Assembly: GCA_039586795.1 (NCBI GenBank)
Contig: JBDHJS010000001.1
Span: forward strand, 64,001 to 128,000
DNA from: Gemmatimonadota bacterium
GTDB taxonomy: Bacteria > Gemmatimonadota > Gemmatimonadetes > Palauibacterales > KS3-K002
Reading direction: 5' to 3'
Length of the DNA: 64,000 bases
The stretch's first letter is position 1. Every line of letters starts with the position of its first letter. The position numbers and the translations under genes are program-made. This document shows, piece after piece, positions 18,949 through 21,920 of the stretch. The notes beneath the pieces are model-generated. The model saw only the letters and a program-made list of their open reading frames with translations. It was not told the origin of the DNA and did no database searches.

Positions 18949-20043
18949 ATGCCCGGAATCACACGACGCTCCTTTTTCAGGAATAGCATCCTAGCTGGCG
19001 CCGGCGCCGCCGTCTGGCAGAGACTCACCCCATCCGCCCAGGCGAGCGCGCCCGCCCCGACGTTTGGCCGAAAGTCAGCCACCACGCCGATGGTCGTCAC
19101 AAGCCATCCGAACGACACCGGGCGCCGGGCGCTGGAGATCGCCTGGGAGATCCTTGCGGATGGTGGTACTGCGCTGGATGCGGTCGAGAAGGCGACGAAC
19201 CACATCGAGTTGGACCCGAACGACTGGAGCGTAGGGTATGGTGGCCTTCCCAACGAGCGCGGTGTGGTACAACTCGACGCTTCGATCATGGACGGCAAAA
19301 CATACAGCGCCGGATCGGTCGCATCTCTGGAGAACATCGTGCATCCATCATCGGTGGCGCGACTGGTTATGGAGCGCACCGACCACGTGATGTTGGTGGG
19401 CCCCGGCGCTCTCGAGTTCGCCACGTCCTGGGGCTTCGAGGAGCAAGAGCTGCTCACAGAACGGGCGCGGGAGCGTTGGCTGCAGTGGCGTGAAGAACAC
19501 AGCGAGCGGGACGACTACGGTCCGCCCGACCATGTCAAGACGGGCAGCGACGAGCGCGGAGCTTCCCTCCCCGGTAGCGATCCCGAGACGTATGGGACGG
19601 TTAACGTGCTGGCGGTCGACAACAACGGTGATGTCGCCGGGATCACGAGCACCAGCGGTTTGTCGTGGAAGATCCACGGCCGTATCGGCGATTCGCCAAT
19701 CATCGGCGCCGGTCTCTATGTGGACAACGATGTCGGCGCCGCCGGCGCCACCGGTCGCGGCGAAGACGTGATCAAGGCCTGCTCGTCGTACTACATCGTC
19801 ATGCGGATGCGTGAGGGTCGGTCACCGCAGGAGGCGTGCGAAGACGCGCTCCACTACATCGCCGACCGCTACCGGTCGGTGGGGCTGGACTACCTCCCGG
19901 GCGAGAAGTTCGTGGCAATGAACCGGGACGGCGAGGTAGGCTGCGCCCAGACGTTCGGGCGGAATGCCCCGAGGATGACGGTGGCAGGCGGATCCGGGAT
20001 CGAGGTTTATTCCGGGGAGACGGTCTTCAGCCGGGAAGACTGA
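18949..20043 (+). CDS. Tat-exported Ntn-hydrolase (glycosylasparaginase / isoaspartyl peptidase family)
   Basis: Tat motif TRRSFF; SVGYGG, LDASIMDG, GTVN nucleophile, GRIGDSPIIGAG; ATG 18949 after AGGAG. Confidence 0.9.
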   Translation: MPGITRRSFFRNSILAGAGAAVWQRLTPSAQASAPAPTFGRKSATTPMVVTSHPNDTGRRALEIAWEILADGGTALDAVEKATNHIELDPNDWSVGYGGLPNERGVVQLDASIMDGKTYSAGSVASLENIVHPSSVARLVMERTDHVMLVGPGALEFATSWGFEEQELLTERARERWLQWREEHSERDDYGPPDHVKTGSDERGASLPGSDPETYGTVNVLAVDNNGDVAGITSTSGLSWKIHGRIGDSPIIGAGLYVDNDVGAAGATGRGEDVIKACSSYYIVMRMREGRSPQEACEDALHYIADRYRSVGLDYLPGEKFVAMNRDGEVGCAQTFGRNAPRMTVAGGSGIEVYSGETVFSRED

Positions 20044-20196
20044 TGATTCGGGGATTCGCTCAGCCAATCGCCGAAGCCGCGAATCTGGTGACCCCCGAAT
20101 CGCTCCAATCCCTCCGAGTAGACGTGGCGGGCCGTATATAGTTATATTTAGATATAGGCATTATAAATGACAGTAACCCATAGAGAGATAAACACT

Positions 20197-20415
20197 TTGC
20201 CTACATACGATTACGTTTGCCTTGAGTGTGGCCGGCAGTTCGACGTGAGGGCCTCGATTTCCGCCTACTCGGCCGGTCTTTCGCCCCACTGCCCGGACTG
20301 TGGATCGGACAACGCGGATCGGAGGTTCTCCTCAGTGAACGTGCTCACGGGGTCGCAGGAGTCGGCAGGCTCGCCGCCGAATTGCGGTCCATCGGGCTTC
20401 AGTTGAGTGAACTGA
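20197..20415 (+). CDS. FmdB-family zinc-ribbon protein, probable selenoprotein (Sec at 20404-20406; ends at 20406 if not recoded)
   Basis: TTG start MPTYDYVCLEC...CPDC; C-terminus CGPSGFS-TGA-VN-TGA with a SECIS-like hairpin downstream. Confidence 0.8.
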
Positions 20416-20417
20416 AG

Positions 20418-20434
20418 CCGCCCAGGTTGGGCGG
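20418..20434 (+). promoter_or_regulatory. Putative bacterial SECIS element
   Basis: CCGCCC-AGGTT-GGGCGG, 17 nt, starting 11 nt after the in-frame TGA. Confidence 0.7.
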
Positions 20435-20441
20435 AGATCGA

Positions 20442-20479
20442 GCATGTCACGGGTCAGCCCTGTGGCTGGCCCGTCGTGC
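20442..20479 (+). terminator. Second hairpin after the FmdB gene (terminator or stabiliser)
   Basis: gcatg-tc-acgggtcagcc ctgt ggctggcccgt-cgtgc; no U-tract. Confidence 0.35.
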
Positions 20480-20685
20480 ATCTGCGATGCGGCGCCGGGG
20501 TAGTTGGATCTCAGCCTCGTGTGAGGTATCCTATTAGCATCATCAGTCGCGCTGACCGAGCTGTTCCGTAGCCCATCACCGAGGTGGGCGGCTTGGGAAA
20601 GAGCAGCCGCCGCTCCAGACTCCGAACTCAAAGGCGAGCAGACCAAGGTGCGGGCAAGCGCACGAGTGGCCGTCGGAGGTTCAGA

Positions 20686-21057
20686 ATGCCGATAGAGACG
20701 CGGATCGACTCAGCCGCGGGCTTGAGGACGCACATAGTCAGCGGAGAGATGGACTTTGACGCTCTCTCTTCCACGCTCGAGGGCGTCTATTCGGACCCGG
20801 ACTTTCTTCCCGACCTCAACGTGTTGTGGGATCTTCGAGACGCGATCCTGACGGTGTTTTCTTCCGGGGACGTCAGCCGAGTTGTTGACGTGGTGAAGGG
20901 GAACTGGACGGGGGCCCGGGCGGCGCTTGTGGTTGGGCGCGACGCCGACTTTGGAATGGCACGAATGTACGAGCTGCAGCACGATACATCGTCATCGGGC
21001 GAAGTGCGTGTGTTCCGAGATTTCGAAGAGGCGACGGCATGGGTAATGGAGAAGTAG
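20686..21057 (+). CDS. Small SpoIIAA/STAS-like hypothetical protein, copy 1
   Basis: ATG 20686 after GGAGG; VLWDLRDA, AALVV...FGMARMY, VRVFRDFEEATAW. Confidence 0.7.
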   Translation: MPIETRIDSAAGLRTHIVSGEMDFDALSSTLEGVYSDPDFLPDLNVLWDLRDAILTVFSSGDVSRVVDVVKGNWTGARAALVVGRDADFGMARMYELQHDTSSSGEVRVFRDFEEATAWVMEK

Positions 21058-21364: not shown

Positions 21365-21533
21365 CGCTCGTACGTGAAAACGGACGACTGGCGTTCCCGC
21401 CGCTCGAATCTCCCTGCTGCTTGACGCTAAGCTCAAGCTCGGCTTACGATTATGGGTTAATATGACCTGCCGGCGCCATCCATAGGACGCCGATCGGTTG
21501 ACTCGAAAGCCCCAGGATACGAGCGGAAGCACT

Positions 21534-21920
21534 GTGCCGTTCAGTTACGAGATTGACAGGGGCCGCGACTTCGTCTCGATAGTCGCAAGCGGCAAGATCA
21601 CGACCGAAGAAGCGTTGGCGACTTTCGACGCGATCGTCGGTGAACCCGGCTTTCATCCCGGAATGAAGATCCTGAGCGATCACCGGGACCTGGAGACGGT
21701 AGTACCGATAGCGTTCATAAAGGCGTGGATCAGCCGTATCGAGGAGGCCGGCAAGCTGTTTCGGGGGACGCGGGCGGCGCTGGTCGAGTCGGGGACCGTG
21801 AGATACGGAATGGCGCGCATGGCATCGATTCTCACAGAGCCGACGGCGATCGAGATGCGCGTGTTTCGCGACGTCGAGGAAGCCCGGAACTGGCTCGAGT
21901 CACCGGCGGTCTTGTTATAA
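21534..21920 (+). CDS. Small SpoIIAA/STAS-like hypothetical protein, copy 2
   Basis: ILSDHRDL, AALVE...YGMARM, MRVFRDVEEARNW; paralogous to 20686-21057. Confidence 0.7.
   Translation: MPFSYEIDRGRDFVSIVASGKITTEEALATFDAIVGEPGFHPGMKILSDHRDLETVVPIAFIKAWISRIEEAGKLFRGTRAALVESGTVRYGMARMASILTEPTAIEMRVFRDVEEARNWLESPAVLL

Follow-up and report, generated by a model that had tools for sequence, protein, structure and literature searches.

The locus and its zinc-ribbon protein

The window, by which we mean the whole stretch of 64,000 nucleotides that was analysed, carries a short gene for a small zinc-ribbon protein. The reading frame from the TTG codon at 20197 ends with NCGPSGFS, followed by TGA (20404-06), GTG, AAC and a second TGA (20413-15). 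A preliminary description of this DNA had reported this end of the frame and a 17-nt hairpin 11 nt after the first TGA, and the same coordinates were found on re-reading. The features of the locus are as follows.

20119 to 20148, forward strand: sigma-70-like promoter (TAGACG, 18 nt, TATATT), the sole site in 20040-20700 (shuffles gave a mean of 0.1)
20137 to 20154, no strand: AT-rich imperfect 18-bp palindrome covering the -10 box, a predicted ArsR/SmtB-family operator
20197 to 20415, forward strand: coding sequence of a predicted 72-residue selenoprotein, TTG start; the alternative start is the upstream ATG at 20167
20218 to 20301, forward strand: CxxC-x20-CxxC zinc ribbon (C8, C11, C32, C35), from TIGR02605, PF09723 and the structure model
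20383 to 20385, forward strand: tail Cys63, predicted partner of Sec, invariant in 31/31 aligned orthologues
20395 to 20419, forward strand: competing 10-bp hairpin, not conserved, which takes in both UGAs and the first 2 bases of the SECIS
20404 to 20406, forward strand: UGA, the predicted Sec70 codon; TGA is the first stop in 120/120 testable relatives
20413 to 20415, forward strand: predicted true stop codon, TGA here and TAA or TAG at the same column in 54/120 relatives
20418 to 20434, forward strand: predicted bacterial SECIS, entirely in the 3' UTR (CCGCCC-AGGTT-GGGCGG, 11 nt after the first TGA)
20442 to 20479, forward strand: strong second hairpin (-27.8 kcal/mol; region z -4.85; no U-run after it)

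Neither the palindrome nor the competing hairpin figured in the preliminary description. Orthologues carry ATG, GTG or TTG at the column of the TTG start. The protein scored 52.4 bits against TIGR02605 (FmdB zinc ribbon, cut-off 31.3) and 51 bits against PF09723 (cut-off 34.4). With both curated cut-offs passed, it is by sequence a zinc ribbon of the FmdB family, and zinc binding is predicted. The four ribbon cysteines are invariant in 31/31 aligned orthologues and are all encoded by TGC or TGT in the window gene. An AlphaFold model of the 69-residue form (mean pLDDT 68) placed a beta-ribbon in residues 1-43 and left the tail unstructured. Such a tail in a model of the truncated protein would fit a mobile arm. 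Foldseek and a PDB sequence search with the window protein gave no match at E 0.001. No match to it was obtained in plasmid records, where P0225 had 12 partial zinc-ribbon matches, and viral contigs gave zero matches. Four RNA runs with small word shares yielded no contig over 20202-20579, which is uninformative on expression.

Selenocysteine machinery of the genome

The selenocysteine proposal of the preliminary description depended on selA, selB, selD and tRNA-Sec, and all four are present: the three genes scored above cut-off and tRNA-Sec reached 75.8 bits. Reading of TGA as Trp was ruled out, as TGA ends 1732/3727 ORFs and the single TCA-anticodon tRNA called by ARAGORN is tRNA-Sec. Among the orthologue genomes tested, selA was found in 28/30, as compared with 320/401 across the phylum (a tally that includes, here only, the unpublished genome G209). 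This co-occurrence adds little because the phylum-wide rate is already so high. One orthologue genome that is 76% complete (G022) has tRNA-Sec, and another that is 95% complete (G182) has selB only.

In the genome's own SelD gene, 10 nt separate an in-frame TGA from a 7-bp stem whose loop is GGC. Three further genes, one PrdB-like and two AhpD/CMD-like (C20:91946, forward; C58:7287 and C59:49817, reverse), have TGA at the redox position, with 6-bp stems 11-13 nt downstream and G in the loop; from their sequences they are likely selenoproteins. A glutaredoxin-like gene (C106:28589-28777, reverse) reads TPT-TGA-PYC, a UxxC arrangement, and is likely another unannotated one. A genome-wide Sec screen returned 13 rows, three of which were checked as control genes. 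The window candidate was absent from these rows, probably due to the codon-position GC filter.

Conservation of the recoding signature

To collect Gemmatimonadota loci, sets of 61 and 401 genomes and the genome collection were searched at the protein level. Exclusion of 16 duplicates and a single KKS-type paralogue left 50 loci: 46 Sec-form loci and four with Cys-rich tails, one of them frameshifted. The 46 Sec forms end C-x-x-x-x-[FYL]-[STGR]-TGA. Their second in-frame stop lies at +3 in 44 (TGA 29, TAG 11, TAA 4) and at +2 in two, and 42/46 passed a strict hairpin test. Metagenomic loci were sought with a pattern of protein only, ending GF[ST], which contained no stop codon or hairpin. There were at least 120 matches, of which 80 were taken and 79 were distinct. 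Three of the 79 did not end GF[ST], being one chance match and two apparent frameshifts. In the remaining 76 the first stop was TGA without exception (76/76). Two of these were cut by contig ends, and the others had the second stop at +3 in 59, at +2 in 14 and at +4 in one.

Thus, 120 testable relatives (46 Gemmatimonadota and 74 metagenomic) were found by protein sequence alone. They form 115 clusters at 90% identity and 39 at 60%, and span 38-75% GC; kin are not independent, but the pattern is kept across the deep clusters. The first stop was TGA in all 120, never TAA or TAG, and the second was TGA in 66, TAA in 31 and TAG in 23, at +3 in 103, at +2 in 16 and at +4 in one. Among loci below 50% GC, the first stop was TGA in 20/20 and the second was TAA in 16/20. 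The distance from the last Cys to the TGA is 7 or 8 codons in 117/120. Codon +1 encodes Ala in 95/120 and Gly in 20/120, with all four synonymous codons of each in use, as coding sequence would show.

By the strict test, a G-loop hairpin starting 9-15 nt after the TGA was present in 99/120 relatives (shuffles: mean 3.4, maximum 9), and 21/120 failed at this position. The same test further downstream, as a control, was passed by 9/120. The 99 hairpins use 49 different 5' stem arms, and in 79 of them the 8 nt that come next contain at most two T. The loop G falls 19-24 nt after the TGA in 115/120. RNAalifold on a MAFFT alignment found only 3 pairs. Counts on the named structure gave 93.5% paired, the stem being nearly invariant with little covariation within Gemmatimonadota. 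As pair counts from the best-hairpin finder are partly circular, the strict test with shuffles was used instead.

Controls were drawn from the same family. KKS paralogues end with TGA in 22/23, but have a stop at +2 or +3 in 0/23. The three Cys-tail sisters that could be read past the stop had no stop at these positions either. TGA alone is thus weak evidence in this phylum, while its combination with the second stop and the hairpin is not. In long, TGA-ended and loosely filtered ORFs of the own genome, a stop at +3 occurred in 46/1489 and such a hairpin in 29/1489. Therefore, the case for Sec rests on conservation, and this is very strong.

By sequence, the relatives carry the signature of a Sec that stands one to three residues before the protein end, with the SECIS past the stop. 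The machinery and the 120/120 signature support the proposal that the first TGA is recoded as Sec, and conservation of the tail Cys and of the second stop likewise supports a predicted product end of C-x6-U-V-N. The preliminary description had also held that the second TGA is probably the true stop, which agrees with the TAA and TAG codons of the relatives, and that gene callers truncate the tail. Database proteins do end at the UGA column, in 119/119 and 112/113 cases (231/232).

Hairpins at the 3' end

The predicted SECIS folds into a 7-bp stem with a GGU loop. Taken alone, its stability is only mildly above that of shuffles (z -1.95, 12/200). With the U of the UGA numbered 1, the hairpin spans positions 15-31, with G23 (20426) and U24 (20427, T) in the loop. 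In the available part of PMC8659212, the upper stem-loop of the E. coli fdhF SECIS agrees in length (17 nt), in position (15-31, at 11 nt from the UGA) and in G23 and U24. Unlike it, the window hairpin lies outside the coding sequence and has no bulged U17, as the preliminary description had recognised; position 17 is a paired G. The missing bulge is no argument against Sec and is normal for this organism, because the SelD, PrdB-like and two AhpD/CMD-like hairpins also lack it.

The competing hairpin at 20395-20419 holds the UGA at its stem end and loop. Its energy is -15.2 kcal/mol in the window, whereas the median in the 120 relatives is -4.8 and only 12/120 reach -8. This window-specific structure should melt once a ribosome stands at the UGA. 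No terminator call and no Rfam match were obtained for the second hairpin at 20442-20479, which is probably the 3' end structure of the transcript.

Tail types in the wider family

Among 50% representatives, 147 short proteins were obtained with a profile search. Their tails are Cys-rich in 74, F[STG]-ending in 23, KKS in 12 and other in 38. F[ST]-ending forms are also named from Anaerolineales and Leptolinea. A Cys homologue at the exact column (GF[ST]C) was found neither among the representatives nor among database proteins or sampled metagenomic loci, and the Cys counterparts of the Sec tail are poly-Cys tails. Among the Cys-tail representatives, 17/74 end with Cys-x6-Cys plus 0-2 residues, in tails of low complexity. 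When 79 ribbon cores were compared over 54 columns, three Cys-tail forms fell within the Gemmatimonadota Sec forms with support of 95/89, in a tree whose bootstrap had not settled and which is too weak for a claim of origin. One genome holds both the Sec form L066 and the Cys-tail form L081. The nesting and this co-existence suggest, from sequence, that tails have been exchanged.

The Cys-tail sisters (L081, L083, L092 and L096) end with CPPxCxC and then TGA, and have a different upstream motif in common, CGACTAGGTT. Three of the four keep TGA-GC as in the Sec forms, and L096 is frameshifted near codon 27. A second FmdB subfamily (C22:45309-45479 and L015-L037) ends FFAKTAKKS without the Sec signature, and has a conserved downstream gene in family f1.

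Promoter palindrome and its predicted repressor

TTGACA or TGGACA followed by TATATT occurs upstream of most orthologues, and in the Gemmatimonadota Sec forms an AT-rich palindrome overlaps these boxes. When a matrix was built from zinc-ribbon promoters without the window site, the window palindrome ranked first in the 4.68-Mb genome. The second rank was a site before an ArsR/SmtB gene on contig C68, which heads an operon of TolC, adaptor, RND, small-protein and YgaP-like genes (C68:150777-157330, in part L098). A third match, inside a coding gene, was dropped. Homologues of the C68 ArsR were found in 24/30 genomes, at 29 loci. A matrix from these 29 ArsR promoters alone gave TATAGCAATATTGCTATA and that from the zinc-ribbon promoters gave CATAGCAATATTGCTATG; the two are the same palindrome.

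With the ArsR-only matrix, the window palindrome scored 15.4 bits, second of 3727 genes. A score of at least 10 bits was reached by 36/46 Sec-form promoters, 0/4 Cys-tail promoters, 0/23 KKS promoters and 3/3727 upstream regions of the own genome, leaving 10/46 Sec-form promoters below that value. The three own regions belong to the ArsR operon, the window gene and a cupin gene with a glutaredoxin-disulfide reductase fusion behind it (11.0 bits). In genus g66, no ArsR match was obtained at E 1e-12 in five genomes, four of which keep the palindrome. The ArsR homologues precede TolC/RND or outer-membrane efflux, 4Fe-4S/NrfD, DUF302 or DsrE genes (11 scanned).

An ORF divergent from the C68 ArsR gene (C68:157459-157869) has no NCBIfam match, and its N-terminus presumably resembles RemA/DUF370.

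Helix alpha-5 and the end of helix alpha-1 carry the cysteines of the C68 ArsR, and Asn occupies the position of the SqrR/BigR alpha-2 Cys. Its score against NF040642 was 52.9 bits, for a cut-off of 155. The SqrR/BigR persulfide sensors have their Cys pair in helices alpha-2 and alpha-5, according to the available part of PMC10509353. The C68 ArsR is not a canonical persulfide sensor because it lacks the alpha-2 Cys. Judging from its cysteine pattern, it is possibly an undescribed thiol-sensor subgroup. The repressor with its operator and operon is conserved in relatives.

Neighbours in other lineages

Within Gemmatimonadota, no conserved neighbour of the gene was found. Many of the sampled metagenomic loci sit on short contigs, and most are without a redox neighbour. 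In 7/76, the gene directly downstream is of the CsoR family, with two Cys but no His. All seven of these (7/7) keep both Cys and have no His four residues before the second. The x-C-x-C pattern is a fingerprint of persulfide-sensing CstR clusters in the available text of 10.1101/2021.07.25.453692. The CsoR neighbours resemble CstR in this fingerprint and in a G/C-tract operator (same source, available part), and persulfide sensing by them is putative. A TATAC-N5-TATAG site is found upstream in 12/79 sampled loci. The other recurrent neighbours are thioredoxin (5), OsmC (6), thioredoxin-reductase-like (3), DUF302 (3), DUF523 (3) and ArsR (3).

In a further lineage (loci L103, L107, L108, L115, L118, L120, L123, L129, L135, L159, L162 and L168), a short ORF that bears Cys and has a WxGCGG-like end precedes the Sec-form gene. 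In several of these loci ArsR lies upstream and DUF302 downstream.

Comparison with known selenoproteins

The FmdB-family selenoproteins described from GOS reads by Zhang and Gladyshev in 2008 carry Sec in the first zinc knuckle, at residue 8, residue 11 or both (PMC2398784, available part), and are listed as U/CxxU or UxxU in the available parts of PMC9312934 and PMC13188914. The statement in the preliminary description that FmdB proteins occur in predicted selenoproteomes therefore stands as a family precedent and fails as one for a tail Sec, the Sec of PMC2398784 (available part) being that of the first knuckle. The GOS proteins share with the window protein the TIGR02605 domain and a UGA followed by a G-loop SECIS. 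On the other hand, two GOS sequences have U8/U11 and a GWY core (PMC2398784, available part), whereas the window protein has four intact ribbon Cys, a predicted Sec third from the C-terminus and the SECIS past the stop.

UXX-star families 1 and 2 (NF041114 and NF041211) also have Sec third from the end, going by their name (U-X-X-stop), but they and related fusions are glutaredoxin-like. Neither model matched the window protein or 8 extended relatives, and NF041211 had matches only elsewhere in the genome. The selenoprotein form of SaoC and KCU-star likewise have a C-terminal Sec that shows as a double stop, and a 7-bp GGU-loop SECIS past the coding end; they differ in ending Cys-Sec, in having an exact Cys counterpart and in being unrelated proteins (10.1101/2022.07.06.499078, available part). 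The same source, in that part, shows that double-stop reasoning has been used in print for SaoC.

A 2026 inventory of 119 selenoprotein families (PMC13188914) and PMC9312934, in their available parts, contain FmdB only as the first-knuckle form. The terms 'FmdB' and 'zinc ribbon' do not occur in the available BSepDB text and one supplement (PMC13326102), and the available main text of deep-Sep (PMC12013277) has none. NCBIfam release 20 held no selenoprotein model for the extended window protein or the 8 relatives, and our literature searches found no description of a tail-Sec FmdB zinc ribbon. The 'FmdB' of PMC11227280 is unrelated, being formylmethanofuran dehydrogenase. By sequence, the tail-Sec FmdB appears to be a different subfamily from the published FmdB selenoproteins, not found in the catalogues examined. 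Searches for Cys/TGA pairs would miss it, given that the Sec has just two residues behind it and that no exact Cys form was found. Its recoding would follow the usual bacterial mechanism.

Discussion

We propose, with a probability of roughly 55%, that the gene encodes a 72-residue selenoprotein that is derepressed through ArsR and uses a Cys/Sec redox arm against reactive-sulfur or thiol stress. The parts of this proposal differ in strength. Reading of the first UGA as Sec is highly probable given the conserved signature. Control by ArsR through the palindrome is probable, with binding deduced from the shared matrix. The role of the tail as a redox arm for reactive sulfur is an even call.

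The proposed course of events is as follows. SelB would bind the hairpin just past the stop and insert Sec at the first UGA, and the ribosome would add Val-Asn before stopping. When selenium is lacking, the product would end at Ser69 with a single tail Cys. The thiol-bearing ArsR/SmtB repressor of contig C68 would bind the palindrome over the -10 box, and its release would switch the gene on; the same ArsR would also control its own RND-efflux/YgaP operon. The tail may take up sulfane sulfur or reduce S-S bonds; the resulting Cys63-Sec70 bridge could be reset by thioredoxin systems, while the zinc ribbon may serve as a scaffold or docking surface. The SqrR/BigR and CstR regulons are similar in their thiol-bearing repressors, autoregulatory AT-rich or G/C-tract operators and sulfur or thiol neighbours. 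They differ in that the Gemmatimonadota ArsR has no alpha-2 Cys and that no rhodanese, persulfide dioxygenase or SQR was among the neighbours scanned.

The main rival to the redox arm is metal(loid) binding. Here Sec is inserted and the Cys/Sec tail is a ligand for As(III), Hg, Cu or Cd, buffering the ion or handing it to efflux. A review proposes metal ligation by Sec in UXX-star proteins (PMC13188914, available part), and the poly-Cys tails that replace the Sec tail in 74/147 would fit metal binding equally well. Many metal sensors belong to the ArsR/SmtB and CsoR families, but the CsoR neighbours lack the Cu-binding His. Although the C68 ArsR carries Cys in alpha-5 and stands first in an operon for RND efflux, 105 neighbours and 11 ArsR-downstream genes scanned included 0 genes for arsenic, mercury or copper resistance, and the recurrent neighbours are thiol-redox and sulfur genes. 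We regard this rival as somewhat unlikely.

It is also conceivable that Sec is inserted, that the palindrome is no ArsR operator and that the protein does something unrelated, for example helping to mature a nearby molybdoenzyme. A cluster of putative xanthine-dehydrogenase type is found in the window about 2 kb downstream, yet the gene neighbourhood is not conserved. The motif lies across the -10 box and is rich in AT; however, scores of at least 10 bits in only 3/3727 own upstream regions show that it is no generic promoter. This role is improbable.

A much smaller chance still is given to the first TGA as a real stop, with the second as a backup, the hairpin as a terminator or 3' stabiliser, and a protein ending in GFS. 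All but one of 232 database forms end there, the GF[ST] end is conserved, perhaps as a binding motif, an exact Cys homologue was not found and tandem stops do exist. Nevertheless, the first stop is TGA in 120/120 while the second follows host usage, Ala or Gly is conserved between the two, 79/99 hairpins have few T after them, and the loop G is held at 19-24 nt in 115/120. Insertion of Sec at both UGAs (UxxU), to which a strong hairpin at 20442-79 and a frame open past 20500 might point and which the preliminary description had already called less likely, can be set aside, as the second stop is TAA or TAG in 54/120, the sequence past it is not conserved and the second hairpin begins 26 nt after the second TGA.

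The preferred reading, a selenoprotein with a Cys/Sec redox arm, can be widened tentatively, and with less confidence than the reading itself. Unannotated selenoproteins of about 70 residues may be widespread, their Cys/Sec-armed zinc ribbon acting as a sink or carrier of sulfane sulfur with interchangeable tails. They would have been wired independently into thiol regulons in at least three lineages, namely with ArsR in Gemmatimonadota, with CstR-like CsoR in Anaerolineae-type loci and in another ArsR-DUF302 operon elsewhere. If true, this would provide a testable function for the FmdB zinc-ribbon family and tie selenium supply to reactive-sulfur defence. The finding would add a broadly distributed selenoprotein subfamily that is truncated in nearly all database copies examined. 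With the operator and neighbour evidence, the function of these 'putative regulatory' zinc ribbons can for the first time be put to a concrete test.

Two short ORFs downstream of the gene, at 20686-21057 and 21498-21920, look alike; the first matched nothing, and the second matched the SpoIIAA-like family PF11964.
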